From a virus (lineage: Duplodnaviria > Heunggongvirae > Uroviricota > Caudoviricetes): a DNA stretch of 22,685 nucleotides. A program made the position numbers and the translations under genes. Below are positions 6,724 through 19,799 of this stretch, in pieces (within the stretch, counting starts at the first letter, position 1; the number at the start of each line of letters is the position of its first letter). The notes beneath the pieces are model-generated. The model was not told the DNA's origin, searched no databases, and saw nothing but the letters and a program-made list of their open reading frames with translations. The stretch lies in IMG/VR virus record IMGVR_UViG_2734482779_000007; one strand, written 5' to 3'.

Positions 6724-7524
6724 TTAACCGCGCTTCGCCTTCTGCGTCGCGGTGGTTTTTCGTGTTGCAGGCTTCCGCGTTGTCTTTTTACTTTTGCTGC
6801 TTTCGTCCTGCGCCTGCTGTGCGCTGGCGTCTTCTGGTTCGGCTGCGGAATCGGCTTTTTTCAGGGCGCGGGAAAGGGTTGCAATCTCGCGTTTCACACC
6901 TGCGTTCGGGTTCAGGTGCATCGCTTCGCGCAGCAGCTTCAGTGATAAGGCCATGTTGTCTGCATCGGTCAGACCACGACGGGCAAAGGCGCACGCCTTG
7001 CATAATTTGGCGCGTACTTCGTCCGGCATGTCCTGGTCGGTGACAATCTTCCGGAGGGTGTCCAGTGGTTCGATAAAGGCGGACAAATCCGCGTCGGCAT
7101 CCGCCCCGGCCTGCGTCAGTACCGGGTTGCAGATTTCTTCGGTCAGCACTGTGGCAGCAGTACGGCCAAAGTTATCCGGCATAATGAGGTTATGACGGAC
7201 CACATACGCACCAATACGCAACGCCAGCGGAAGATCGCCGCAGTCAATCGCCCACACCATCAGCGTGGCAATCACTTCATCCTGCTGCCCACCGTCAGCC
7301 TCCAGCGTTCCCTCAATCCAGCCGGAAAAGTCCGGCAACAACTCTTTTTTGATGGCGGCTTTCGCGCTTCTGGCCTGTACGCCCTTAAGCCGGGCCTGTG
7401 CCAGACGCAGACGATACAGCACCTCTTCATGCGCGGTACGCGCGGCGTGGTCCACGCCTTCATTCGCCCGGCCTGCGCGCTGTGCCATCACGTTCTGCCA
7501 GTGTTGCTGTGCAGGAGTAATCAT
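6724..7524 (-). CDS. M: Terminase small (endonuclease) subunit M (P2 gpM-like)
   Basis: 266-aa ORF MITPAQQHWQNVMAQRAGRANEG...KKELLPDFSGWIEGTLEADGGQQDEVIATLMVWAIDCGDL...MPDEVRAKLCK, collinear with P2 gpM; basic K/R/T-rich tail. GGAGAG SD before ATG 7524. Confidence 0.85.
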   Translation of the reverse strand: MITPAQQHWQNVMAQRAGRANEGVDHAARTAHEEVLYRLRLAQARLKGVQARSAKAAIKKELLPDFSGWIEGTLEADGGQQDEVIATLMVWAIDCGDLPLALRIGAYVVRHNLIMPDNFGRTAATVLTEEICNPVLTQAGADADADLSAFIEPLDTLRKIVTDQDMPDEVRAKLCKACAFARRGLTDADNMALSLKLLREAMHLNPNAGVKREIATLSRALKKADSAAEPEDASAQQAQDESSKSKKTTRKPATRKTTATQKAKRG

Positions 7525-7541
7525 TTTTTCTCTCCGTTACA

Positions 7542-7560
7542 GGCGGGCATGATGCCCGCC
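7542..7560 (-). other. GC-rich hairpin in the N-M intergenic region
   Basis: GGCGGGC (7542-7548) / GCCCGCC (7554-7560), loop ATGAT; lies between N stop (7570-7572) and the M SD. No U-run follows. Confidence 0.3.
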
Positions 7561-7569
7561 GTGAGTTGA

Positions 7570-8622
7570 TTAGCTGTCGGCGAACTTCAGGCCAGTGACC
7601 ATCGCGCACTTGCCATAGTCTTCAACGACATAAGCGTCATTGATGGACTGATAGGTGGCGATGCGGTTGTATTCCGGTTCGTCTTTCATCAGACGACGCA
7701 TTGAACCTTTTTGCCAGTAAATCGACAGGTTGTTGAACGAGGTGATCAGCATCGTTGCATCCGGGAAGAACGGCGCAAGGAACACGCCCAGCCCGCCAAT
7801 GGTGCGCGATGACAGGATGAGCTGCCCGGCAAGTAATTCCGCATTGGGATTCTGGCCGCTGATGCTGTTCAGCACGGGCAGACGCAGCGAGTTAAACAGG
7901 TTGCGCCCCATAATCACCACGAGGTCGTCAGCTTCCTTGTGCCATTCATCCAGCAGGGATGAACGCGCGTCCTGTACCAGTGCATCAGCGTTCGCATACT
8001 TACCCGCGTGCGCCACGGTGTTGTCCATGTTGCGGGAGGTCAGCGTCACGTCATTCATAACGCGCTCGCTGGCGTCGGTTCTGATGTGCTCCAGCCATCC
8101 CACGTTAACGTCCTGAAGCAGCTTGTTGGTGCTGAAGTTGGATTCATCCGCGTGAGACGTGCCGTTGAAACCGATCATGATGCGGTCAAGCGCCACCTGC
8201 CGGGCAATCTGTGCGCTGATGCGGGACTGAAAATCAGGATGTGCCGCCCAGGCATCAAGCTGCGGATATGAAATAAACGTGTCGTAGTTCACCTGTTCGC
8301 ACTGGTATTTGCGGTTTTTCAGATCAACCACGTTATTCGGGTTACGGCGTTTTGTGCCGTCATAACTGGTATTCGTGCGCGCAATCGGCCCGGTGGTATC
8401 CAGGAGGATTTTTTCGCCTTTCTGGTCGATCACGCCGATCACGTTAATTCTTTTTGTAAATTCGGTGCTTTCCTTTGAGGCGTTTTCAAAACGCTGCTGT
8501 ACCGAGGGTTCCACGGTAAATCGCGATACCAGTGCGGAAACCGGGATATTGTTAAGCGACGCCTGCTGCGCCATATAGCAACCCAGCTTGTTGCGGGTAA
8601 TATCTGACATCACCAGATTCAT
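7570..8622 (-). CDS. N: Major capsid protein N (P2 gpN-like)
   Basis: 350-aa ORF with ...FTVEPSVQQRF...KGEKILLDTTGPIA...YQCEQVNYDTFISYPQLDAWA...MIGFNG...LQDVNVGWLEHIR...DLVVIMGRNL...NLSIYWQKGSMRRL..., collinear with P2 gpN. AAGGAG SD before ATG 8622. Confidence 0.9.
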   Translation of the reverse strand: MNLVMSDITRNKLGCYMAQQASLNNIPVSALVSRFTVEPSVQQRFENASKESTEFTKRINVIGVIDQKGEKILLDTTGPIARTNTSYDGTKRRNPNNVVDLKNRKYQCEQVNYDTFISYPQLDAWAAHPDFQSRISAQIARQVALDRIMIGFNGTSHADESNFSTNKLLQDVNVGWLEHIRTDASERVMNDVTLTSRNMDNTVAHAGKYANADALVQDARSSLLDEWHKEADDLVVIMGRNLFNSLRLPVLNSISGQNPNAELLAGQLILSSRTIGGLGVFLAPFFPDATMLITSFNNLSIYWQKGSMRRLMKDEPEYNRIATYQSINDAYVVEDYGKCAMVTGLKFADS

Positions 8623-8645
8623 AAAAAATTTGCTCCTTTGTCTTA

Positions 8646-9482
8646 TCAGAAGTCAGCCAGCTGGTCGGAGGCTGCGCCCGTTGCGGTGAACCGATTCTGC
8701 GGATCGCTGTCCTGCGTGCGCAGTTTTTCCTTCAGTGCTGCCAGCTCTGTGGTCAGTAAAGTGATTTTCTGGCTGTCCTGCTGATGGCGGGTTTCCAGCA
8801 CATTAAAACGGTCGATAATGTCGGCCTGTGACGTTGCGACACCTTCCACCGCTTCCTGAATACGGGAGAAACTGGCGTCATCCGCTTTGCGGCCACGGCC
8901 AATAATCCCCATAACGCGGTTAAACCACTGGGTGCCTTCTTCCTGACGTTGTTCGGTGAGTTCGATAAGTTCTGACTCCATAGCGGCGGTAAACATCGCC
9001 ACGTCTCCCTGCTGACAGTTGAATGTCATCAGTTGCATACGTTGTTGTGCCGCAAAGGCCAGACGTTCCGTGCCCAGGCTGGCAGGGGTGTCGGTCATTG
9101 CCAGCCCGCGCAGGTAAGGGCCTCCCGTGATGGTTGACTGTGGTTCCAGCTCAATACTGGAGTAAATTTTTTTACCATCGTTAAGCAGGGACATCATGCG
9201 AGCGGTCGGCTCAATTTCGGCATACAGTGCCGTGCGACCTGCCAGCGGGCCATCGGTTATGTCTTCGGTGCTCAACCCCACAACATCGCCCATAGCGGAA
9301 AACTCGCTACCGGGGAGTGGTGACAGGATGTGCTCAATATTCACACGTGCACCATAAACGGACGGGTTATAACTGGTGGCGGCAGCTTTCAGCATGTCGC
9401 CGTTGATTTCGCGCCCGTCTGCCGTTACACCGGAGACAGCCACGCGAAACTTTTTGCGGGATGTCTTTTTTTCATTAGCCAT
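8646..9482 (-). CDS. O: Capsid scaffolding protein O (P2 gpO-like)
   Basis: ORF track 8646..9515. The in-frame ATG at 9482 is preceded by AGAGGGG and gives MANEKKTSRKKFRVAVSGVTADGREINGDMLKAAATSYNPSVYGARVNIEHI, matching P2 gpO MAKKVSKFFRIGVEGDTCDGRVIS. ATG 9515 has no SD. Confidence 0.85.
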   Translation of the reverse strand: MANEKKTSRKKFRVAVSGVTADGREINGDMLKAAATSYNPSVYGARVNIEHILSPLPGSEFSAMGDVVGLSTEDITDGPLAGRTALYAEIEPTARMMSLLNDGKKIYSSIELEPQSTITGGPYLRGLAMTDTPASLGTERLAFAAQQRMQLMTFNCQQGDVAMFTAAMESELIELTEQRQEEGTQWFNRVMGIIGRGRKADDASFSRIQEAVEGVATSQADIIDRFNVLETRHQQDSQKITLLTTELAALKEKLRTQDSDPQNRFTATGAASDQLADF

Positions 9483-9636
9483 AGTTTTTGCCCCTCTGAC
9501 TGGTTCTTCAGTCATGATGGCAAAGCGTAACAGGCTGATACAAAGGGCTTTTGTTGTAAGAAAACGGCCAGAACAGGGGGTTAAGGAGAACAGTTTCGCG
9601 CGCGGGTAATCTTCCTGTAATTACTCAGGGGGAGCA
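9483..9636. promoter_or_regulatory. Divergent late-promoter region between O (leftward) and P (rightward)
   Basis: 154-bp gap between divergently transcribed late operons, equivalent to P2 P_O/P_P. Contains palindrome ACAAA-GGGCT-TTTGT at 9540-9554. No canonical TGT-N12-ACA box found, so promoter positions are not assigned. Confidence 0.4.
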
Positions 9637-11388
9637 ATGATTCAGGACGCTTTTGTGCGCCAGCGTGCGCGGCAACTTTACTGGCAGGGTTATCCGCCCG
9701 CAGAAATATCACGTCTGATGGGAATAAACCCGAACACGATTTATGCGTGGAAAAAACGCGACCAGTGGGATGAAACGCCACCTGTGCAGCGTGTCACGCA
9801 GTCCATCGATGCGCGCCTCATCCAGCTTACTGAAAAACAGAATAAAACAGGCGGTGACTTTAAGGAAATAGACCTGCTGACCCGGCAGCTTAAAAAGCTG
9901 CATGATGGCCAGCCGGATGTGATGGCCGCAGGAAAGAAAGGCCGGGCGAAAAAACTCAAAAATCATTTCACGCCGGAACAGATTGCCGCACTGCGGGACA
10001 AAATCATCAGCAGGCTGGAGTGGCATCAGCGGGGCTGGTTTGACTCCCTGACCCTTTGCAGGGAAGCCGGGATACGTAACAGGATGATCCTGAAATCCCG
10101 ACAGATTGGGGCGACCTGGTATTTTGCACAGGAAGCTCTGCTGATGGCGCTGCGTGACGATGTGGCGCAACCTTACCAGCGTAACCAGATTTTTTTGTCT
10201 GCGTCGCGTCGTCAGGCGTTCCAGTTTAAAAGCATTATTCAGAAGGCCGCGGCTGAAGTTGATGTGGAGCTGAAAGGGGGCGATAAAATCATCCTCTCCA
10301 ACGGCGCAGAGCTGCATTTTCTCGGCACTTCTGCTGCGTCGGCACAGTCCTATACGGGCAATTTTTATTTTGATGAATTCTTCTGGGTCAGTCGCTTTGC
10401 TGAACTGCGCAAGGTGGCTGGCGCTATGGCAACCCTCAGCGGACTGCGGCGCACCTACTTCTCCACGCCATCCACCGAAACGCACGAGGCATACGCCTAC
10501 TGGAACGGCGACCGCTGGAACGAGAAAAAGGCCACGCATAAACGCCAGCGTTTTTCTGTGGACTGGAAAACGCTGCATAACGGGCTTATCTGCCCTGACC
10601 GGACGTGGCGGCAAATTGTCACGCTGGAAGATGTGGTTAATCACGGCTGGAAACACACCGATATTGATGAAATTCGTGATGAAAACACCGAAGACGAGTT
10701 CCTCAATCTCTATATGTGTGAGTTTGTCCGCGAAGGGGAATCGGCATTTAACCTGAATATCCTGATTGGCTGTGGCGTTGACGGATACGATGACTGGAAA
10801 GACTGGAAACCTTTTGCTCCCCGCCCGATGGGGAATCGTCCGGTGTGGATTGGGTATGACGCAAACGGCAGCAGTGGCAACGGCGACAGCGGCGCTGTGT
10901 CCGTGGTGGTTCCTCCGGCTGTTCCTGGTGGCCGTTTTCGAACGGTGGAGACGCGACGCGTTCAGGGGCTGGAGTTTGAAGAACAGGCCAGAGTCATTGA
11001 AGAGTTCACGTGTCGCTACAACGTGGAACACATCGGCATTGATGTGACGGGCGGGAACGGGGAGGCTGTTTATCAGATAGTGAAACGGTTTTTCCCTGCT
11101 GCTATTCCGTACACCTTCACGCTGTCATCAAAACGGTCGCTGGTACTGAAAATGCTGCAAATAATGCGTGCCGGGCGGTGGGAATACGATCGCGCCGAAC
11201 GCGAGCTGGTCGCGGCCTTTAACGCCGTGCGTAAGGTGAAAACACCGGGCGGCTTTATCACTTACGAAACGGACCGCGCGAGGGGGATCAGCCACGGCGA
11301 CCTTGCGTGGGCAACCATGCTTGCTGTCATTAACGAACCGATTGGCGGCGAAGGAGAAAACGAGCGTTTCACGGTTATGGAGTTCTGA
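9637..11388 (+). CDS. P: Terminase large (ATPase) subunit P (P2 gpP-like)
   Basis: 583-aa ORF preceded by GGGGGAG SD; size and position (divergent from O, followed by the portal with TGATG overlap) match P2 gpP. Confidence 0.9.
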   Translation: MIQDAFVRQRARQLYWQGYPPAEISRLMGINPNTIYAWKKRDQWDETPPVQRVTQSIDARLIQLTEKQNKTGGDFKEIDLLTRQLKKLHDGQPDVMAAGKKGRAKKLKNHFTPEQIAALRDKIISRLEWHQRGWFDSLTLCREAGIRNRMILKSRQIGATWYFAQEALLMALRDDVAQPYQRNQIFLSASRRQAFQFKSIIQKAAAEVDVELKGGDKIILSNGAELHFLGTSAASAQSYTGNFYFDEFFWVSRFAELRKVAGAMATLSGLRRTYFSTPSTETHEAYAYWNGDRWNEKKATHKRQRFSVDWKTLHNGLICPDRTWRQIVTLEDVVNHGWKHTDIDEIRDENTEDEFLNLYMCEFVREGESAFNLNILIGCGVDGYDDWKDWKPFAPRPMGNRPVWIGYDANGSSGNGDSGAVSVVVPPAVPGGRFRTVETRRVQGLEFEEQARVIEEFTCRYNVEHIGIDVTGGNGEAVYQIVKRFFPAAIPYTFTLSSKRSLVLKMLQIMRAGRWEYDRAERELVAAFNAVRKVKTPGGFITYETDRARGISHGDLAWATMLAVINEPIGGEGENERFTVMEF

Positions 11389-12434
11389 TGAGCAGAAAAA
11401 ATAAAAAAGTGCGCATGAGTTCACGCATTGATCTCGCTGATGCGCTCAGGAAAGAATCATCGCTCAGTGCATTCACATTTGATGGTCCTTATCGCCTGAC
11501 CGGGCATGACCTGCTGGACAATATGTACTGTGCTGATAACGGGCGGTGGTATGAAACCCCGGTGGACTGGTACGGTCTGGCAAGAGCAGCCCGGCAAACG
11601 TCCTGGCATCAGTCTGCGCTTTACTTTAAGCGCAATGTATTACTCGGTTGCTACATCCCGCACCCGCTGCTTTCCCGGCAGGATTTCTCGGCGCTGGCGC
11701 TGGACTGGTTTGTGTTCGGTAACGCATTCCTTGAGCTTCGAAGCAATATGCTCGGCGAACCGCTTAAATTACGGCACGCCCTGGCGAAATACATGCGACG
11801 CGGAAGCGATCTTGAATCATGGTGGTATGTGCAGGATGGTAAGGACGCGTTTCAGTTTCGCCCTGGCAAAGTGTGCCACCTGATGAATCCTGACATTAAC
11901 CAGGAAATCTACGGCATGCCGGAATATCTCGGCGCATTACTCTCGGCCAGCCTGTCTCATTCGGCGGACATGTTCAGAAAACTGTATTACGACAATGGAT
12001 CCCACGCCGGGTGCATCATCTACATCGGTGCAGCGCAGGTAAACCGCGAAAGCATGGACTCCCTGAAAGAAACGTTACAGGGTGCGCGTGGTGGTGGTGC
12101 GTTTAAAAACGTGCTCATCCATGCGCCCAACGGGGGCAAAGAGGGGGTGCAAATTTTGCCGTTCCAGCAGATCACCGCAAAGGATGAGTTCATGAATGTT
12201 AAGGCGGCATCCCGTGATGATGTGCTGGCTGCGCACCGCGTTCCGCCGCAACTGATGGGGGCGATGCCGGGCGAAAAAAGTGCGTTTGGTGATGTGGAGA
12301 AGGCCGCGCGGGTTTACGCAATTAACGAGCTGATGCCTGTCATGGAGGCCATGAAGCACATCAATGACTGGCTTGGCGAAGAGGTGATCCGCTTTAACCC
12401 TTACGCACTGTTAGACACCCAGCCCACATCCTGA
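11388..12434 (+). CDS. Q: Portal protein Q (P2 gpQ-like)
   Basis: 348-aa ORF translationally coupled to P; size and position match P2 gpQ, the last gene before cos. Confidence 0.9.
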   Translation: MSRKNKKVRMSSRIDLADALRKESSLSAFTFDGPYRLTGHDLLDNMYCADNGRWYETPVDWYGLARAARQTSWHQSALYFKRNVLLGCYIPHPLLSRQDFSALALDWFVFGNAFLELRSNMLGEPLKLRHALAKYMRRGSDLESWWYVQDGKDAFQFRPGKVCHLMNPDINQEIYGMPEYLGALLSASLSHSADMFRKLYYDNGSHAGCIIYIGAAQVNRESMDSLKETLQGARGGGAFKNVLIHAPNGGKEGVQILPFQQITAKDEFMNVKAASRDDVLAAHRVPPQLMGAMPGEKSAFGDVEKAARVYAINELMPVMEAMKHINDWLGEEVIRFNPYALLDTQPTS

Positions 12435-12460
12435 CGCGCTTCGCTTGTCTGCTGCTTCGC

Positions 12461-12485
12461 CGGGGCATAAAAAATTTATGCCCCG
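12461..12485 (+). terminator. Candidate terminator hairpin after portal gene Q
   Basis: 11-bp perfect stem CGGGGCATAAA / TTTATGCCCCG with 3-nt loop, 27 nt after the Q stop. No U-run follows. Confidence 0.35.
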
Positions 12486-12858
12486 ACTCTCCAGCTCCTG
12501 TATCAGTCAGATAATTTCACGACGCTTTCCTGCTGATTGCCATCATCGACAGTCAGACTCTTACGCAATCCCACCGCGTTGACTGCATGTTCTCGCCGTC
12601 TCAGTGCGATTTTGACGGCCTTACCTTTCACCCCATCAAATCAAAAGCCCTCACGTCTTTTTCACGCTCAGCGTGAGAAATACAGCCATTCTGTTGTATC
12701 TCTGCGACATCGTTCAGGGAATGCTATTTACCCCCTGAAACGCGGGCTGTTCCCCCGTCACTTGCGCGCAGAAAAAACGCGTTTTTTTGTGCATGCACGG
12801 ATCCCTGACGGATCCAGCCACCATGCGGGCCGGAAGGGTAAAAAGTCGTTCAAAAAAA

Positions 12859-12885
12859 TTGTGCAAATTTGTGCACTATTGTGCA
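12859..12885. repeat. Three direct repeats of TTGTGCA phased 10 bp apart
   Basis: TTGTGCA at 12859-12865, 12869-12875 and 12879-12885 (one helical turn apart), flanked by A7 upstream and hairpin AGGGCGAT / ATCGCCCT (12888-12911) downstream. Confidence 0.5.
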
Positions 12886-12923
12886 GAAGGGCGATGCGCG
12901 ATTATCGCCCTGGTTTGGCAGTT

Positions 12924-13130
12924 CTAAATACGTTTCACAATACCCACAAGATTGCCAGGTGACAGTTCTGCTGTGTGTTTAATATCGTCCACTATGTACG
13001 ATGCATGTTCACGGTTAATCGCATAGATATAAAATGAGTACTTCCGTTCATCTGCCATAAAGTCGACAGAAAATAATTTCCATGTACGCCCCTCGACTTC
13101 AACCTGTAACGGCATATTTATTCCGCTCAC
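12924..13130 (-). CDS. Hypothetical small protein (68 aa)
   Basis: ORF MSGINMPLQVEVEGRTWKLFSVDFMADERKYSFYIYAINREHASYIVDDIKH...; first codon GTG at 13130 is preceded by AAAGGAG. Last gene of the minus-strand small-ORF cluster before the cos region. Confidence 0.4.
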   Translation of the reverse strand: MSGINMPLQVEVEGRTWKLFSVDFMADERKYSFYIYAINREHASYIVDDIKHTAELSPGNLVGIVKRI

Positions 13131-13156
13131 GCATAGTCTCCTTTTGAAAATTCTAA

Positions 13157-13597
13157 TTAAATATTTTCGTTACGAAGCATGGCGGCGCGGCAGGCTTCAT
13201 CAACCATAGCTTCTACGTTTTCGAGAAGTACGTAACTGTACTGCTGCCCACTAACCCATTCTTTTCTGCGAGGTAATGCGCGTGGGTCAGATACAATAGC
13301 TCGCAAACGTTCCAGAACAGTTGGTACTGCTGGCGGCTCGCGATACAGCGAGATTACACGACGCGGGTCCGCATATTTATCTGGCGGACACTGAAATATC
13401 TCACCGAAACCATACTTCCTGACATCGCGCAGTTCCTCTTCATCAGTCCATGCCACCGGTTCTGCTTCCAGCGATGCCAGAGCAATCCGTGCCAGCTCTT
13501 CCGCTTCTTCTGCTGGCAGTACAACGTTGCTACCAGGTCCGTATGTTTCGCGCCACTGCTTGATTGTCAGCAGTCGCTCTTTGGTTATAGTTGTCAT
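13157..13597 (-). CDS. Hypothetical protein (146 aa)
   Basis: ORF MTTITKERLLTIKQWRETYGPGSNVVLPAEEAEELARIALASLEAEPVAWTDEEELRDV...; ATG overlaps upstream stop (ATGA). No recognisable domain. Confidence 0.5.
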   Translation of the reverse strand: MTTITKERLLTIKQWRETYGPGSNVVLPAEEAEELARIALASLEAEPVAWTDEEELRDVRKYGFGEIFQCPPDKYADPRRVISLYREPPAVPTVLERLRAIVSDPRALPRRKEWVSGQQYSYVLLENVEAMVDEACRAAMLRNENI

Positions 13598-13803
13598 TTG
13601 TTAACCCTCAAAACTTTATGCCCGGGCGCAAAAGCACGTGTTTTGTCTTTGCTTATTCGCCAGCCATCCTTACGCGCCTCTTTTGCACAACCAGCCCATG
13701 ACGTACCGATATACTCTCCGAAGTCTGGCGACTTATATTTGCCATCTGTACACTGGAGGCAATCACAATAGAGATGCATGGTGTAACTTGCAGCGATAGC
13801 CAT
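13594..13803 (-). CDS. Hypothetical small Cys-rich protein (69 aa)
   Basis: Within ORF 13594..13824 the ATG at 13803 is preceded by AAAGGAGAG and gives MAIAASYTMHLYCDCLQCTDGKYKSPDFGEYIGTSWAGCAKEARKDGW (C-x-C-x2-C...C, possible metal site). Confidence 0.45.
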   Translation of the reverse strand: MAIAASYTMHLYCDCLQCTDGKYKSPDFGEYIGTSWAGCAKEARKDGWRISKDKTRAFAPGHKVLRVNK

Positions 13804-13804
13804 A

Positions 13805-13978
13805 TCACTCTCCTTTGATACCAATGTTTACAGTCTGGCAAGCTTCTCTGAGCACCCAGTCAACAGCGTCTTTCCATGCTCCGGTTTCGGTTGGCGGATT
13901 CTCACGCTTTACCAGTTCGCCGTTCTCAGTCCATGCCAGCTTGATGTTGGTGGAGCCGTCGTCGATACAAATTTTCAT
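13805..13978 (-). pseudogene. ParM/StbA-like N-terminal fragment (57 codons), probable remnant
   Basis: Unlisted minus-strand ORF, ATG 13978 preceded by [43 protein letters not shown]... begins like plasmid R1 ParM ([21 protein letters not shown], phosphate-1 motif) but stops after 57 codons. Confidence 0.35.
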
Positions 13979-14012
13979 GTCGCTTTTCCTTATGTTGATT
14001 AATTAATCGTTT

Positions 14013-14037
14013 ACGGGATTCTGAAATCCCGTTTTTT
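14013..14037 (+). terminator. Plus-strand intrinsic-terminator-like hairpin 1 downstream of gene A
   Basis: Stem ACGGGATT (14013-14020) / AATCCCGT (14025-14032), loop CTGA, followed by T6 (14032-14037) on the plus strand. Confidence 0.5.
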
Positions 14038-14048
14038 CCTGTTTTGTG

Positions 14049-14077
14049 CGCGCTTCAAATATCGCTGCGCGTTTTTT
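14049..14077 (+). terminator. Plus-strand terminator-like hairpin 2 overlapping the A stop codon
   Basis: Stem CGCGC (14049-14053) / GCGCG (14067-14071), 13-nt loop, followed by T6 (14072-14077). Confidence 0.35.
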
Positions 14078-16877
14078 GCTCATTTACGGGATTCGTGAGT
14101 CCCGTTTCTGTCTGTTTTTTGTTTTCACTGGTCAGGCCACCCCGCAGCAGGTCTGCTTTGCGGCGGGCGCGTTCAGTGGTTTCACTGATTCTCTGTGCGT
14201 GCTCTGTGTCGCGGATGGCGCTCAGCATGTCAGAAAGCACGGTAACGGGTGTTTTCATGGTGTTCTGGTCCTGCTGAAGTGTGGATGCCAGGCGTGCGGC
14301 GGCTTCAGGGTCTGATGCCCCCAGCTGCGCCAGATAGCTGGCGACCGGGTTATGGCGGATCTCCGTGCTGCTTACGCCGTGATTACGGCTCAGGCGTTGC
14401 CAGAGCTGCGTGATTCGGCTGTCCGGGCGGGTATCCGGTTTGCGTACAATTTCAAATCCCTGCGGTGCAATGATGCTGCCGTCAATGTACAGACTGCCGC
14501 CCCGTAACAGGTGCTGCATCTGTTGTTCACCGATATGCAGGCCGAGAGATTCAGCAGACTCCCGCCATTCTTTAGCGAGTAATTCGTGGTTATCAGGCAA
14601 AGGCCGCTGCTGTTTGCGGCTCTGTGTCCAGCTCTGCATTTCATCACTGCTGTTTTTTGCCTGTTTGTCACGAAGCGAACGCATCAGCGCCCGGCGTTCG
14701 TGCCGTTTCAGTGAGCGCATCCATTCGTTCACTTCAACGCCGTCAGGGAGCTGCGGCCACGGTGCTGGCCGTTCTTCCGGCTGTTCTGTCCCGTTGTTGT
14801 CCGTTTCCTGTACACGGGGACAGTTATTGCCACGAGTCCAAGGGGCGGCAGGGCCGCCCTGAAGGTCAAAACCATTTTCGCGGGTGCTGTCTTCCGCTTC
14901 CGGTTTACGTCTTACCAGCTTCCAGTTATCCGGATGCGTGCACACACGGGAGGATTCCCCGATGAGTGGTGACCAGATCCCGTAAATCTGTACGCTCTGT
15001 TCACCGTAATCGTTCAGCTCATCTGCGAGGTCGTAGGCGGTGCGAATCAGGTAGTCTTTGCGTGGAACAAGTACGCCGCCCTGTTTCTCTATGTAGGTGG
15101 CAAAACATCCGGCATCAGCGGCAGCGAGTACCGCATCCATTGCGTCATCCTTCAGCTGTTGCGGGCCTTCCGGGTTGCGTGCCATCTGGCTGGCAAGGCG
15201 ACGCAGTTCACGCCACACCTGACGGGAGGGGATACCAAAGAACTGGAACTGGCGGACACGGTGAAGGCGCGCCCAGCCGATGGCGCGTTCCACGCTCTCG
15301 GCCATTGACTTTCCGGTTTCGTGGTCAACGCGTGGCTTGCCCGTTTTCGGGTCGGTGCCATCCACGGCGCGGCTGTCCAGGTTCTTTCCGATGTAGGTGG
15401 CGATGTAGCTGGTTGGCGTGCCTTTTGAGCCGTCTACGTACTCCGCCTTAAAACGCGGAGTAATATCATTGCCCAGCTCGTGGCGGTCTTCCTGAATGGC
15501 AATATCACGGGTGTGGGACACAATGGTGTCGATTTCTTCCGGATGAGCAAAGACCATCATATGCCAGTGCACGGTGCCGTCATGGTGAGGCTCCACCGTG
15601 CGGATGCCATACCAGCGCAGGCCGTCGCGGTTCAATTTCTTGCGGACCGCTGCAAAAAACGTGTTAACCAGGTAATCGCTGGAGTCGCGCATGGTGGCCC
15701 CGTTCCATTTGGGATTCGGATGACCGTTCTCTGTTGTGGCGTGGTATTTTGACGGGCAGGTGACAGTCAGAAACACCGCTTTGTCGCCACGGGCTTCGGC
15801 CAGAAGTTCCAGCCCCTTCATGGTGGCCATCATTTCTGCCTTACGGTGAACCGGGTTACTTACTCCCGCGTAATACACTGTCTCGAGATCAATCGTGAAC
15901 CCGTCTTCGTTTTCCAGCATGAAACTTTTCAGGAAGTCGCGTGTTTTCTCGCGCTGTGCGCGAAATTCACTTAATGCATCCTGACTCAGATAGGGGGATG
16001 TTTTTCTGGAAACCAGACAGGCAGCGCGGAGTTGTTCCTCTCTCCATTCGCAACGTAAAAGCCACAATTTGCGTTTCCACCAGTCCGCACAGGTCAGGCG
16101 AAGGATTGCACCCGGCAGCAGTTCTGTGTCCGGTTCGTTCCTCCGGTCTTTGTCTGTTGTCAGTGCGTCATAATGCGGAGGCACTGTGTGCAGATGTAAC
16201 GCCATGCGAGCCAGCAGCTGATACGCCTTCAGCGTTATATCCATGGTCAGCTCGCCATCGGTCGCGCCAAAGCCATCGCAGAGTTTTTCGAAGGTGCTGC
16301 TGAACATTGCCGCCGTCATGACGGCCAGTGTCTGTATCTGGTGTTTGTTGAGCTGCGGCAGGTAAAGTAAATCGTCCAGACGTTCACGTCCGGCAAGGGA
16401 GCGATAACCCGGAGTCAGCCAGCGTCCGTCAGTGCGGGCCAGACGTTCCAATATTTTGCGCAGGGTTCCGCGTGCATAGCGTTCCGCCTGCCAGCTCTTT
16501 TTGCCTTTCCGGCGATCGGCTTCCTGTTTTTTGCGCAGGAAGGAGAGGTGGCGAATAAGCGGATCGCGCAGATAGGACGGCAGCAGGCGCAGCGAGGCCA
16601 TGGCTTCATCCACCGCACCGCGTGCCTGTTTTCTGGCTTCTCTGGCCAGTGTGATGGTTTTGTCCTGCTTTTCCTGTGCGTCCAGGCTTTTATTAATCAG
16701 GTTGCCCAGCGGTGTGGCGGAGAACGCCGCGTCAGCCATTTCCTGGCGGCGCTCGTTCTCTGCCCGGTAGGCATCCAGCCAGGAGGAAAGTGCGGATTCA
16801 GGTGCGGGGATCCCCGTTCCTTCACGTCCTACTGCGTGGCGCGGTTGTTGCCAGTCCCTGATGTACTCTGCCGTCAT
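14055..16877 (-). CDS. A: Replication initiation endonuclease A (rolling-circle HUH initiator, P2 gpA family)
   Basis: 940-aa ORF, the largest in the early operon. Contains ...GIRTVEPHHDGTVHWHMMVF... (HUH-type metal site) and ...TSYIATYIGKN... (catalytic Tyr region) as in P2 gpA, but is longer than P2 A (~761 aa). Confidence 0.85.
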   Translation of the reverse strand: MTAEYIRDWQQPRHAVGREGTGIPAPESALSSWLDAYRAENERRQEMADAAFSATPLGNLINKSLDAQEKQDKTITLAREARKQARGAVDEAMASLRLLPSYLRDPLIRHLSFLRKKQEADRRKGKKSWQAERYARGTLRKILERLARTDGRWLTPGYRSLAGRERLDDLLYLPQLNKHQIQTLAVMTAAMFSSTFEKLCDGFGATDGELTMDITLKAYQLLARMALHLHTVPPHYDALTTDKDRRNEPDTELLPGAILRLTCADWWKRKLWLLRCEWREEQLRAACLVSRKTSPYLSQDALSEFRAQREKTRDFLKSFMLENEDGFTIDLETVYYAGVSNPVHRKAEMMATMKGLELLAEARGDKAVFLTVTCPSKYHATTENGHPNPKWNGATMRDSSDYLVNTFFAAVRKKLNRDGLRWYGIRTVEPHHDGTVHWHMMVFAHPEEIDTIVSHTRDIAIQEDRHELGNDITPRFKAEYVDGSKGTPTSYIATYIGKNLDSRAVDGTDPKTGKPRVDHETGKSMAESVERAIGWARLHRVRQFQFFGIPSRQVWRELRRLASQMARNPEGPQQLKDDAMDAVLAAADAGCFATYIEKQGGVLVPRKDYLIRTAYDLADELNDYGEQSVQIYGIWSPLIGESSRVCTHPDNWKLVRRKPEAEDSTRENGFDLQGGPAAPWTRGNNCPRVQETDNNGTEQPEERPAPWPQLPDGVEVNEWMRSLKRHERRALMRSLRDKQAKNSSDEMQSWTQSRKQQRPLPDNHELLAKEWRESAESLGLHIGEQQMQHLLRGGSLYIDGSIIAPQGFEIVRKPDTRPDSRITQLWQRLSRNHGVSSTEIRHNPVASYLAQLGASDPEAAARLASTLQQDQNTMKTPVTVLSDMLSAIRDTEHAQRISETTERARRKADLLRGGLTSENKKQTETGLTNPVNEQKTRSDI
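14086..14120 (+). terminator. Plus-strand terminator-like hairpin 3 inside the 3' end of gene A
   Basis: Stem ACGGGA (14086-14091) / TCCCGT (14100-14105) followed by a T-rich tract ending in T6 (14115-14120). TTTACGGGATTC is a direct repeat of hairpin 1 (14010-14021 vs 14083-14094). Confidence 0.4.
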
Positions 16878-16883
16878 AGTGAT

Positions 16884-17249
16884 TTACTTCGTCATGCCAT
16901 TCAGGGTGTCGCGGCAGACTGTAGCCAGCCGCTGAATTTCCAGCACGGTGTCTTCTGTGTCGGCATGGCGATGTGTGATGCGGATGCTGTCGGCAATCAC
17001 ATCGACGATTGCAGAGGATGGGCGCTGGTAAATGCCAATAACGGACGGGGTGCCACCTTCAATGCGGTAAAGCCTGTAATTTCCCTCGTTGCTGTCAATC
17101 ATGTAGCGACCATCAATAACAATCTTTCCGTCAGCGAGCTGCGGTACAGGCAGGGATTTCAGGTACATGTCATAACGTTCACGCACGCGAACGGCAAGAT
17201 CACGCTCTGTGTTGAGCAGGTATTCAAGAAAGTCGTTGGCGAGAATCAT
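16884..17249 (-). CDS. Hypothetical early protein (121 aa)
   Basis: ORF MILANDFLEYLLNTERDLAVRVRERYDMYLKSL..., AGAGGA SD, 6 bp upstream of A. No recognisable domain. Confidence 0.5.
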   Translation of the reverse strand: MILANDFLEYLLNTERDLAVRVRERYDMYLKSLPVPQLADGKIVIDGRYMIDSNEGNYRLYRIEGGTPSVIGIYQRPSSAIVDVIADSIRITHRHADTEDTVLEIQRLATVCRDTLNGMTK

Positions 17250-17321
17250 TGCGGCAATCCTCTGGTTACAGATGTGCGAAGGCCTCCCGCCGCAAGGTGC
17301 AGGAAAGGCCCGGAACAGGAA

Positions 17322-17552
17322 TTAATGGAGTTTGTTTTGCTGCTGGATGAGCTGCTGAAGCTCGCGCAGATCATCCGCCAGATAACTGAAAACAGCGGAT
17401 GAGTAGAGGTTTGAAAGTTCGCAGCTACGCTCATGCAGCATATTGATGTGCATGATTTTAGCGACGCGGAATGCGCGGGAAAGTCTGCGGTTGATTTCAG
17501 TCTGGATGTGACGACGCTCCGCGATAGCGCGGTGCTGTTTGCGGTTTGCCAT
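17322..17552 (-). CDS. Hypothetical small basic protein (76 aa)
   Basis: ORF MANRKQHRAIAERRHIQTEINRRLSRAFRVAKIMHINMLHERSCELSNLY... (Arg-rich N-terminus, possibly nucleic-acid binding). AAGAGG SD lies within a repeated 9-mer. Confidence 0.45.
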   Translation of the reverse strand: MANRKQHRAIAERRHIQTEINRRLSRAFRVAKIMHINMLHERSCELSNLYSSAVFSYLADDLRELQQLIQQQNKLH

Positions 17553-17730
17553 GATATGTGGCCTCTTGTAGTAAGTTGTGAAAACTCACCATCCAGAGCT
17601 GCGAAACTGTGGGTGGCGAGACGTACGAGGTTCGCAGTACCGGCTACAAGAGATCCCGGCCCGACCGAAGTCGGCCCCGTACGCCCCGCCATAATTCTGA
17701 CGCGAAAAAAACGTGGCAATACAGTACGCA

Positions 17731-17752
17731 CAAAAAAACCGCTGGCGCGGTT
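17731..17752 (-). terminator. Intrinsic terminator (minus strand) downstream of the SPFH cassette
   Basis: Stem ACCGC (17738-17742) / GCGGT (17747-17751), loop TGGC, followed on the minus strand by U7 (plus-strand A-run 17732-17738). A second U7 lies at 17705-17711. Confidence 0.5.
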
Positions 17753-17888
17753 GTGCGCTCTTGTAGTCAGCAGGCTGCGAAACCCGGCACCCGTTTTATG
17801 AGGTGCATCGAAAATGTAACCTGACTGATTGCGGCATGGCAAGCGGTTTTTTTGTGAGAACGGCATACTAAAAAATCCTGATACTGCT

Positions 17889-17913
17889 CCGGCCAGCGGT
17901 TTGCACTGGCCGG
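17889..17913 (-). other. GC-rich hairpin immediately 3' of the SPFH gene
   Basis: Stem CCGGCCAG (17889-17896) / CTGGCCGG (17906-17913), 9-nt loop, starting 7 nt after the TAA stop. No adjacent U-run. Confidence 0.35.
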
Positions 17914-17919
17914 GTGTCA

Positions 17920-18750
17920 TTACTTCACGGGAACGAACGGAACAGCGGTGTTACTGGTCATGTATTGCGGCAGCGTGCCGTTCCATTTGTTGATCGCTTC
18001 CAGCTCCATAACGCCGGGATTCTGGCGCAGAGCTTCGCCGCGTAAACGAATGGCGTCGGCTTCAGCCTGGGCTTTTGTGCGAATGGCATCAGCCTGTCCG
18101 GCAGCTTCTGCGCGCAACATGTTGGCTTCTGCTTCGCGCTGTTTTACTTCCTGTTCGCGTTGCAGGGTTTTCTGGTTTGCCGTGACTTTGGCGTTAATGC
18201 TGTCGATAACGGTTGGCGGATATTCCGGTTTACCGACATAAGAGAGGCTCATTACCTGAATGCCGATGGGTGTCATTTCTGCCTGAATATCTTTAAGTGC
18301 TGAATCCAGCAGTTCAGACTTGCCACCGTCGATGAATTTATCGGTGGTCATTTTGCTGGCCAGTCGGTTGAGTGCGTCGGCGATCTTCTGGCGCAGGTCA
18401 GTGTCGGTAATGTCGTCCACGCCTTTGCGGTAGGTCTGAAACACCGTGGTAACTTTGGATGGATCAACTTTGTAGGCCACGCCGATGTGATAGCCGATGG
18501 TTGTGCCGTCACTCATCTGGAAGTTGAACGGCTCATCGTAAGTCTTCATTTGTTTGAAAGTCGGGAAGATGTAAACCTCTGTATTCCAGCCTGTCCAGTA
18601 GCGGCCAACGCCAACTACTTCGCCGACGCCTTTGTCGTCGCCCAGTTTGTTGACTTTGATTCCCACATTACCTGGCTCAACGCGATCGCAACCAACCAGC
18701 AGGATGGCGGCAAAAAGCGGGAGAATCTGAAAGAGTTTGAATTTCTTCAT
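17920..18750 (-). CDS. SPFH/Band-7 (prohibitin/HflC-like) domain lipoprotein
   Basis: 276-aa ORF. N-terminus MKKFKLFQILPLFAAILLVGC is a lipoprotein signal with lipobox LVGC. Core ...VEPGNVGIKVNKLGDDKGVGEVVGVGRYWTGWNTEVYIFPTFKQ... fits the SPFH fold. C-terminus is an A/E/Q/R-rich predicted coiled coil (QREAEANMLRAEAAGQADAIRTKAQAEADAIRLRGEA) as in HflK/HflC/QmcA. ATG overlaps upstream stop (ATGA). Confidence 0.8.
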   Translation of the reverse strand: MKKFKLFQILPLFAAILLVGCDRVEPGNVGIKVNKLGDDKGVGEVVGVGRYWTGWNTEVYIFPTFKQMKTYDEPFNFQMSDGTTIGYHIGVAYKVDPSKVTTVFQTYRKGVDDITDTDLRQKIADALNRLASKMTTDKFIDGGKSELLDSALKDIQAEMTPIGIQVMSLSYVGKPEYPPTVIDSINAKVTANQKTLQREQEVKQREAEANMLRAEAAGQADAIRTKAQAEADAIRLRGEALRQNPGVMELEAINKWNGTLPQYMTSNTAVPFVPVK

Positions 18751-18950
18751 TGCTTGATTTCCTTGATGTACTTACTGAAAAGGCGAACAACGCCTGCCGG
18801 GTACAGCATGGCAATGAAAATGCCCAGCAATACCAGGAAGGAGCTGTCTGATGAAATCATTCGGGGGAGTAGTCCTGCATACAGAATGAAAGAGACGAGG
18901 ACGCATACCAGCGCCCACATGTATGCGCGAAACCAGGTCTTTTTGTTCAT
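18747..18950 (-). CDS. Small two-TM membrane protein (67 aa), partner of the SPFH lipoprotein
   Basis: ORF MNKKTWFRAYMWALVCVLVSFILYAGLLPRMISSDSSFLVLLGIFIAMLYPAGVVRLF... with two hydrophobic helices; ATGA coupling on both sides. Confidence 0.6.
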   Translation of the reverse strand: MNKKTWFRAYMWALVCVLVSFILYAGLLPRMISSDSSFLVLLGIFIAMLYPAGVVRLFSKYIKEIKQ

Positions 18951-19165
18951 GTTGATTGCTCTCTTTTGTTATTCAGGAAAAAGTCAAAAACGTTATCGAT
19001 GCGCATCATGAGTTCGCGCTGCATCGCTTCTGGTGTTTCCGGTTCACCAGGCGACCCCAGCGTTGCGCAGAAATCAGCGATCTCGTGTTGAATGAGTTCT
19101 TTCAGCGTCGGTAAGGAATTCATGTGTGTGCGGCGATGCCTGCGTGTGATTCGCCTTCTGCTCAT
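18947..19165 (-). CDS. Hypothetical small protein (72 aa), SPFH cassette gene 2
   Basis: ORF MSRRRITRRHRRTHMNSLPTLKELIQHEIADFCATLGSPGEPETPEAMQ...; basic N-terminus; ATGA coupling on both sides. Confidence 0.45.
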   Translation of the reverse strand: MSRRRITRRHRRTHMNSLPTLKELIQHEIADFCATLGSPGEPETPEAMQRELMMRIDNVFDFFLNNKREQST

Positions 19166-19365
19166 TTACGCTGCTCCTGTACCTGTCGGATAAGGTTTAC
19201 CCGCGCCACATTAGTGGCGCAGAAGTAAGTGCCGTCAGTGAGGTAGATGTGGTGTGCATCCTTTTCCGAACGATGTTTGTCGATAGTGGTAATCAGGCGT
19301 TCGTCGACCTCGTATTCGCGCCCTCTGGAGGTAAAGCGAACGACGGGAAAATGCTTAATTGCCAT
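19162..19365 (-). CDS. Hypothetical small protein (67 aa), SPFH cassette gene 1
   Basis: ORF MAIKHFPVVRFTSRGREYEVDERLITTIDKHRSEKDAHHIYLTDGTYFCATNVARV...; AAGGGGG SD before ATG 19365; ATGA-coupled to the next gene. Confidence 0.45.
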   Translation of the reverse strand: MAIKHFPVVRFTSRGREYEVDERLITTIDKHRSEKDAHHIYLTDGTYFCATNVARVNLIRQVQEQRK

Positions 19366-19388
19366 TGCGCCCCCTTTGTCCAGTAACC

Positions 19389-19799
19389 CTATGCGTTAAA
19401 TACGGTGCACTGTGCGTCATCAATGAATGCGACTTGAGAGCGCTCTATCAGGCGGAGATTTGTCAGAATTTCTGATTCCCTTATGGGGTGAGGAGTGATC
19501 AGGTATTTATCCTGTAACCCGGCGATAATGGTGTATCGCTGTAGCTCCGAGCCAATTGTGTAAATAAGGCGTCCGGTGTTAGACAAATCCAGTCCGGTGA
19601 CGGGTTGTGTTCTGAGAACCGCCAGTTCAGCATCCTGTTTTGCGATAATTTCGGCTGCTTCTGCCGTGACTCTTGCGACTATCAGTGTGTGGGTTGCGAC
19701 GTCCATATGATTATTTGCTATGGCTTTTTTCGCTACTACGTTTTCTGTCTTTGAAATTTCTTTCAGTGCTCTGATGATACCTTCTTCTTTTGCGTGCAT
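19389..19799 (-). CDS. Hypothetical early protein (136 aa)
   Basis: ORF MHAKEEGIIRALKEISKTENVVAKKAIANNHMDVATHTLIVARVTAEAAEIIAKQD...; GGAG SD; 23 bp upstream of the SPFH cassette. Confidence 0.5.
   Translation of the reverse strand: MHAKEEGIIRALKEISKTENVVAKKAIANNHMDVATHTLIVARVTAEAAEIIAKQDAELAVLRTQPVTGLDLSNTGRLIYTIGSELQRYTIIAGLQDKYLITPHPIRESEILTNLRLIERSQVAFIDDAQCTVFNA

Follow-up and report, generated by a model that had tools for sequence, protein, structure and literature searches.

The terminase of phage P2 takes circular monomers as its substrate, and the cos site of phage lambda holds the R1-R3 sites for gpNu1 together with a site for IHF; in a cosB array of this type the repeats are bound by a winged helix at the N-terminus of the small terminase, and IHF assists in bending the DNA. 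Among the P2-family phages a 55-bp core of the cos site has been described (Ziermann & Calendar 1990, as cited in PMC5694545 and PMC9594776), and it is through this core that the diverged cos sites of the Ralstonia P2-like phages phiRSA1 and phiRSY1 were recognised, whose cohesive end is GGTGAGGCGGGGTCCAAC (PMC5694545). The family's diversity hotspot directly adjoins cos, between Q and the replication gene, and cos is the only element that P4 shares with P2 (Rousset 2022, PMC9122126). For P88 or the genus Xuanwuvirus, neither a description of cos nor a mapping of virion ends was found in the literature searched and, given that none has been described there for the group, the linear records of P88-like genomes begin arbitrarily.

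The window, by which we mean the whole 22,685-nt stretch of DNA that was analysed, can be assigned from its sequence to a P88-like prophage (Xuanwuvirus, Peduoviridae) of the P2 family. From position 12300 onward its DNA is 93-98% identical to P88-like Xuanwuvirus records in a similarity search, and the gene order is of P2 type, with terminase and portal genes running into the region of interest and a GPA-type replication gene beyond it. The P2-type terminase subunits gpP and gpM and the portal are all encoded in the window according to Pfam (Table 1); the gpP homologue matches Terminase_6N (1e-49), Terminase_6C (8e-31), Terminase_5 (gpP-like, residues 6-63, 2e-26) and HTH_23, and its helix-turn-helix is coded by positions 9637-9830 (residues 6-63). 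The portal gene (Q stop at 12434) has its 3' end facing the cos region, an arrangement also seen in P2 and 186. Between this end and the cargo beginning at 12886, which is followed in turn by the replication gene, comparison of about 120 relatives, P2, 186, P4 and a satellite-like island located a block at 12720-12885. We put at roughly 85% the probability that this block is the cos site of the prophage, with an architecture homologous to that of the P2, 186 and P4 cos sites; the reading draws on conservation, on a motif register shared with P2, 186 and P4, on the occurrence of the same block in the satellite-like island and on its position at the edge of the hotspot.

Table 1. Features of the window and of the related island. 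Information is in bits; the values for the proximal motif, the repeat array, the GC-rich zone, the spacer and the cargo side were obtained from 112 P88-type contexts. Island identity is the number of identical positions in the satellite-like island.
Feature	Coordinates	Strand	Information	Island identity	Remarks
Small terminase gpM homologue	6724-7524	-			266 aa; Pfam Phage_term_smal 3e-37
P2-family capsid	7570-8622	-			
Scaffold	8646-9515	-			
Large terminase gpP homologue	9637-11388	+			583 aa; N-terminal helix-turn-helix; Pfam
Portal gpQ homologue	11388-12434	+			Pfam Phage_portal; labelled portal in P88 and P88_4B11
Hairpin	12461-12485	+			11-bp stem, 3-nt loop
Lineage-specific spacer	12486-12719		0.78 (mean)		includes the palindrome 12662-12676
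Palindrome TCACGCT-C-AGCGTGA	12662-12676				
Right-hand part of the spacer	12686-12719			7/34	
Conserved left flank of cos	12720-12745			24/26 (L122)	AATGCTATTTACCCCCTGAAACGCGG
Predicted cohesive-end segment (cosN)	12746-12764			18/19	GCTGTTCCCCCGTCACTTG; homologue of the P2 19-nt 5' overhang
GC/A-tract segment	12765-12780		1.36		takes the place of the P2/P4 dyad CGCCCGC..GGGGCGG in the stacked alignment
Perfect 16-bp palindrome	12772-12787				AAAAAACGCGTTTTTT
T-run + GTGCA, proximal motif	12781-12793	+	1.84 per position	11/13	fourth TTGTGCA copy; TGCA at +25
Variable GC-rich zone	12794-12840		1.25	19/47	
CGGATCC pair	starts 12798, 12809				
A-rich segment	12841-12858		1.56	14/18	AAAAGTCGTTCAAAAAAA; leads into the repeat array
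Three TTGTGCA, 10 bp apart	12859-12885 (starts 12859, 12869, 12879)	+	1.83 per position	26/27	TGCA at +97, +107 and +117
Start of variable cargo (hotspot)	12886-12923		0.30	15/39 (beyond 12885)	
Hairpin	12888-12911				8-bp stem
GPA-type replication protein	14055-16877	-			940 aa
Satellite-like island, locus L129	NZ_CP033635.1 1325061-1346661				island at locus ~7100-19650

A sequence-only reading had proposed the whole 490 bp after Q (12435-12923) as candidate cos and terminase recognition elements on the strength of six palindromes and repeats. A re-check of the letters placed all six at the coordinates listed (Table 1) and added a fourth copy of TTGTGCA at 12787 that had been overlooked; on the plus strand just two more copies occur in the remaining 22 kb. 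The impression of an unusual density was also borne out by shuffle tests. Four perfect inverted repeats (stem of at least 7, loop of at most 10) are present, against 0.31 +/- 0.60 in 500 dinucleotide shuffles, none of which reached four, and this is the top count among all 489-bp windows of the sequence; short-range direct repeats of 7-mers number seven, against 0.89 +/- 1.31, with 3 of 500 shuffles reaching that value. The placement of cos in the interval adjoining the 3' end of Q is likewise supported computationally, by the relatives, the TGCA register and the satellite-like island. As to extent, the claim stands for about 166 bp (12720-12885), which are conserved, whereas several of the listed features fall outside this block or are incidental to it.

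Two of the features lie between the portal gene and the block. The hairpin at 12461-12485 stands 26 nt past the Q stop, folds as RNA with -22.2 kcal/mol (z = -4.96) and has no U-tract. The tQ terminator of P2 and the tW terminator of 186 are annotated at the same relative place, and four relatives (L006, L009, L026 and L047) carry differing, non-homologous GC-rich hairpins directly after the portal stop, so that the structure is kept and the sequence replaced. We interpret this hairpin as a structure closing the 3' end of the terminase and portal operon, outside cos; a terminator scan returned just a weak minus-strand candidate built from two of the TTGTGCA repeats. The spacer that follows, with its palindrome, does not align between lineages that are 69-78% identical in Q, and no conserved function was found for it. 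No Rfam family was found at E <= 1 in 12350-13250. Small open reading frames overlap the region at 12503-12631 (-), 12714-12866 (-) and 12537-12962 (+), the latter two with no Pfam matches, and the region is treated as non-coding because close relatives differ in it by 1-nt indels.

The right-hand edge of the block is set by the repeats. The pattern TTGTGCA-N3-TTGTGCA-N3-TTGTGCA was found in at least 120 IMG/VR loci and, among the matches listed, about 105 carry the portal gene at a fixed upstream distance of about -427 or about -375, with some at -1050 owing to an insertion. The triple is kept in relatives in which Q is 69-82% and the replication protein 31-35% identical, and after its third repeat the relatives continue into dozens of unrelated sequences. 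Alignments to phages and E. coli genomes typically end at 12885/12886, which for the genome alignments, made with 12435-13600 as the query, corresponds to query position 451-452; some reach 12917 and just four genomes continue through the cargo. This stop fits the published position of the hotspot beside cos. Of the 5426 complete E. coli genomes searched, a large share have the block itself. When P88-type contexts were chosen by the 19-mer of the predicted cohesive end alone, 122 unique contexts were obtained and the 112 in register were scored; information is highest in the T-run with GTGCA and in the triple, lower in the GC-rich zone, lower again in the upstream spacer and lowest on the cargo side (Table 1). 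Natural variants of the motif retain GTGC and the spacing, the changes hitting the preceding base or the last A. From this conservation and from the register, the phased triple, which the earlier reading had likened to a protein-binding array, would serve as a distal recognition array, with which the conserved block ends on the right. The hairpin at 12888-12911 travels with one family of cargo cassettes, outside cos.

Inside the block, not every feature is equally conserved. The 16-bp palindrome straddles the GC/A-tract segment and the T-run motif and is perfect in this lineage only, other lineages having GACATTTGCTTCG or TAAACGCGCC in the 12765-12780 column; the conserved part is the T-run with GTGCA, which overlaps the right arm of the palindrome. 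The GC-rich zone holds the lineage-specific CGGATCC pair (12798-12815) and an imperfect dyad, CCAGCC-N8-GGCCGG (12814-12833), while dyads of the type GCGCCAG..CTGGCGC occupy the zone in most related lineages, in 186 and in P4. Given that other lineages have unrelated sequence at these places, neither the palindrome nor the CGGATCC pair is needed in that form, and within the block both are specific to this lineage. The RNA fold of the inner palindromes was not significant (z = -0.59 for the segment with the 16-bp palindrome, and -0.75). The A-rich segment ahead of the array may be an intrinsic bend. As a separate observation, each CGGATCC contains a GATC (Dam) site, at 12799-12802 and 12810-12813; a single GATC here is retained by several diverged lineages (such as ..GCCGATCCGG..), not by all, and the satellite lacks it.

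The sequence-only reading had been unable to recognise a cohesive end of the P2/186 type, and indeed the 19-nt end of P2, GGCGAGGCGGGGAAAGCAC, has no match within three mismatches in the window; a diverged homologue is nevertheless predicted at 12746-12764. The search with the P2 end fails because this segment, CAAGTGACGGGGGAACAGC when read in the P2 orientation, is identical to P2 at just 10 of 19 positions. It was found by aligning 27 non-redundant variants, among which the diverged relatives L009, L045, L047 and L048 read ...GCGCGCG CTTGCTCCCCCGCCTCGCC TGCGCGC... in the same column. The segment CTTGCTCCCCCGCCTCGCC matches the P2 end as written on this strand, GTGCTTTCCCCGCCTCGCC, at 14 of 19 positions, and at 12 of 12 over CCCCGCCTCGCC. 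In ungapped 170-nt stacks anchored on the 19-mer, L009 and L047 have 78-89 identities with P2, P4 and 186, against a control mean of 43 (sd 5.8), each value being the unique maximum in its locus, and the window has 90 of 170 identities with L009, again a unique maximum. Against P2 alone the window has a weak direct identity, 62 of 170, which is matched by 40 of 45030 control 170-mers. Given the weakness of the direct identities (10/19 and 62/170), the homology to P2 is transitive, through the intermediates and the motif register, and the nick positions at 12746-12764 are inferred to about 2 nt. Two other approaches to the ends were abandoned: a pairing of the GCGCGC box at 12764-12769 with the GCGCGCA that stands to the left of the P2 end, which would have placed the cut in the A/T palindrome, proved out of register in the multi-lineage alignment, and contig ends proved unusable as a proxy for virion ends, the locus boundaries often being storage chunks (L056 and L146 form one contig).

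Counted from the cohesive end, P2, P4 and 186 have TGCA at +25 (within TTTTAATGCA, to which the proximal motif of the window corresponds), +97, +107 and +119/120, and their distal array has the form ATGCAA-N4-ATGCAC-N5-7-ATGCA, with ATGCA at +96, +106 and +118/119; the flanks to the right of the end are mutually unrelated in the three, yet they have the same TGCA spacing. In the window TGCA stands at +25, +97, +107 and +117 counted from 12765, and no other position on the two strands combines TGCA at +25, +97 and +107, where 0.005 would be expected. That the spacing is general is indicated by 104 unique flanks of the P2/186 type, chosen solely by the end core GCTTTCCCCGCCWCGCC and sorting into 55 types with below 60% mutual identity in the stretches between the motifs. 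TGCA occurs at +25 in 99 of these flanks; 73 have it at +97 and 63 at +107, and about 91 have one at +116 to +120. The register as used here (+25, +97, +107 and about +117 to +120) was derived from P2, P4, 186 and these 104 flanks and is not a published definition.

An independent view of the block comes from elements that carry it without P or Q. Two such loci, L122 and L107, share homology with the window that starts at 12720 and 12726, respectively, and the same element is found in the complete E. coli genome NZ_CP033635 as an island of about 12 kb at a tRNA-Arg gene (L129 in Table 1), one of 55 complete E. coli genomes in which it is present. Its genes encode a P4-type integrase, regulators, an Icd-like protein, a Toprim primase, a second integrase, an ogr/delta-like zinc-finger protein, a 236-aa coiled-coil protein, a P2-family major capsid protein (470 aa, with an N-terminal extension) and MazEF; no terminase, portal or tail genes are among them. 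The predicted cos signal is carried by an element that lacks packaging genes. The DNA common to island and window is 12720-12887, at 80.6% over 170 bp, the only other matches being a 36-bp stretch and a weak 139-bp match in the capsid gene, and the proteins that the two have in common are 34-52% identical. Within the block the left flank, the 19-mer, the proximal motif and the triple are almost unchanged, in contrast to the variable zone and the sequence on either side (Table 1); the match marks both edges of the functional block. The pattern parallels the sharing of cos alone between P4 and P2 noted above and, from its gene content, the island looks like a satellite that supplies its own capsid protein. 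The 36-bp stretch, 94% identical, joins window positions 17771-17806 (in the open reading frame 17246-17920, minus strand) and positions 9908-9943 of L122, in the Icd-like gene.

It is conceivable that the 19-mer is a flanking recognition element only and that the cut falls some 80 bp to the right of it, at or beside 12840|12841, inside CATGCGGGCCGGAAGGGTA (12822-12840). This segment is G-rich, like the P2 end, and the linear GenBank record NC_049391 (P88_4B11, virion-sequenced), the sole one of the group, starts and ends at 12840|12841. The authors of that record, however, trimmed the repeats at the contig ends and then set nt 1 relative to reference genomes (PMC6969025), and since they chose nt 1 the junction is not a mapped end; the ends of the record were rejected as evidence on virion ends for this reason. 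Furthermore, within the block the relatives are least conserved at 12794-12840, and the satellite preserves this stretch far less well than 12746-12764 (19/47 against 18/19), while the register of P2, P4 and 186 indicates 12765. A cut at the rightward position is therefore improbable, and 12746-12764 is preferred as the cohesive-end segment.

The repeats might also serve some purpose other than packaging, as operator or promoter elements of the cargo genes or as sites for a phage transcription factor. TTGTGCA is similar to the -35 hexamer TTGACA, there is a promoter-like match close by on the minus strand (12928-12901), and the equivalent ATGCA triple of P2 is near the old promoter region. This role is very unlikely, given that the repeats stay unchanged whichever of dozens of unrelated cargo cassettes adjoins them and whichever way the cassette is oriented, that the window genes next to them run toward them, that they are kept in the satellite-like island, and that in P2, P4 and 186 they hold a fixed distance from the end despite unrelated flanking genes. 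Short repeats spaced by 10 bp after an A-tract have, in addition, the look of replication-origin iterons. Such a function is scarcely credible for a set of repeats that is common to elements with unrelated replication proteins, namely the 940-aa GPA-type protein of the window, the GPA-type proteins of relatives that are 31-35% identical and the Toprim primase of the satellite; moreover, the origins of P2 and 186 sit inside the replication gene, and the annotated ori and crr of P4 are located elsewhere.

As a packaging signal, the site would be used late in infection, when terminase, composed of the large subunit gpP and the small subunit gpM, would recognise the (T)GTGCA array, with one motif 25 bp from the cut and three phased motifs at 97-117 bp. 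The motifs follow A/T tracts, which could bend the DNA, and have a GC-rich dyad in the space between them. The large subunit would then make staggered nicks flanking 12746-12764, leaving, by homology with P2, a 19-nt 5' overhang, after which the DNA would be packaged. The exact nicks, the overhang length, the subunit that reads the motifs and any role of bending are all inferred. The gpM homologue is the classical candidate reader of the repeat array; given the helix-turn-helix at the N-terminus of the large terminase, however, the small subunit is not the sole candidate, and gpP may be the reader as well. No test of terminase binding to such repeats in P2-family phages was found in the literature searched, which did not include the key 1990 paper.

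With the cos sites of P2, 186 and P4 the block shares its location, downstream of the portal gene's 3' end and bordering a variable hotspot, a C-rich 19-mer (..TTCCCCCG.C.C..) in the homologous column, a T-run with TGCA 25 bp from the end and three phased (A/G)TGCA(A/C) motifs at +97, +107 and about +117 to +119; like 186 and P4 it has a GC-rich dyad between the motifs. Homologues of gpP, gpM and gpQ, and the sharing of the block with a satellite-like element, are further points of agreement with P2, 186 and P4. It differs from P2 in the 19-mer (10/19), from P2 and P4 in the replacement of the end-adjacent dyad by the GC/A-tract segment, and from P2, 186 and P4 in its motif, where TGTGCA replaces AATGCA; moreover, Q and cos are about 310 bp apart, as opposed to about 165 bp in P2. 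The phiRSA1 and phiRSY1 ends keep the GAGGCGGGG core nearly intact, whereas the P88-type end is further diverged (GTGACGGGGG). A looser analogy may be drawn with the cosQ-cosN-cosB arrangement of lambda, in which a nick site is likewise accompanied by several short repeats of one motif on one side over about 100 bp and by bendable A/T tracts, and such repeats are proposed here to be read by a DNA-binding domain of terminase; there is no sequence similarity to the window, and the lambda overhang is 12 nt long as opposed to 19 nt in the P2 family.

The cos site of the window is very probably an ordinary, if diverged, member of the P2-family cos sites, the fine anatomy of which can now be predicted. 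What may be modestly new is that the distal motif array keeps a conserved register and that the P88-type sites may form a specificity group apart, with satellites particular to it. It is tentatively suggested, as a proposal that we consider speculative, that the distal phased TGCA triple (about 97-120 bp from the end) and the proximal +25 motif form a general second recognition module of P2-family cos, read by the helix-turn-helix of the large terminase or by gpM, and that the switch from AATGCA (P2/186/P4) to TGTGCA, along with the diverged 19-mer, defines a separate packaging-specificity group with satellites of its own, in which a P2-type capsid gene takes the place of sid and psu. No earlier description of the distal triple as a cos module was found, Ziermann & Calendar 1990 being outside the literature searched. 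P88-like prophages are common in E. coli, and a prediction of the ends at the level of single bases would allow quick checks of virion ends and the correct orientation of genome records, and would be of use for P88-based cosmids or transducing particles and for finding satellites that exploit P88-like phages. The register shared by P2, 186, P4 and the P88-like phages is also a concrete target for the study of DNA recognition by P2-family terminases, which has been poorly characterised so far.

Several observations fall outside this argument. In one further locus (L111, about 8200-10660), gpM-, gpN- and gpO-like genes that are 27-46% identical to those of the window adjoin a diverged cos-like array, a T-run with GTGCAC followed by three TTGTGCA, in which the 19-mer column reads CGCTCCCCACCCCCTCGCG; P and Q are absent and a P4-type integrase lies downstream, and the element may be another type of satellite or a degraded phage. 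On the left side of the block, the portal gene ends at -1000 to -1050 rather than -427 in eleven loci (L029, L036, L040, L079, L085, L088, L092, L095, L114, L116 and L121), where about 575-620 bp are inserted between Q and cos; given such insertions in some close relatives, the portal-cos spacer, too, accepts extra DNA. The cargo that follows the block in the window encodes proteins of 68, 146 and 76 aa at 12924-13824 (minus strand), with no Pfam or PADLOC matches and with PHROGs of unknown function only (phrog_10509, phrog_60/660 and phrog_926). The region of the 146-aa gene matches DUF551 genes, some of them on plasmids of about 95-100 kb.
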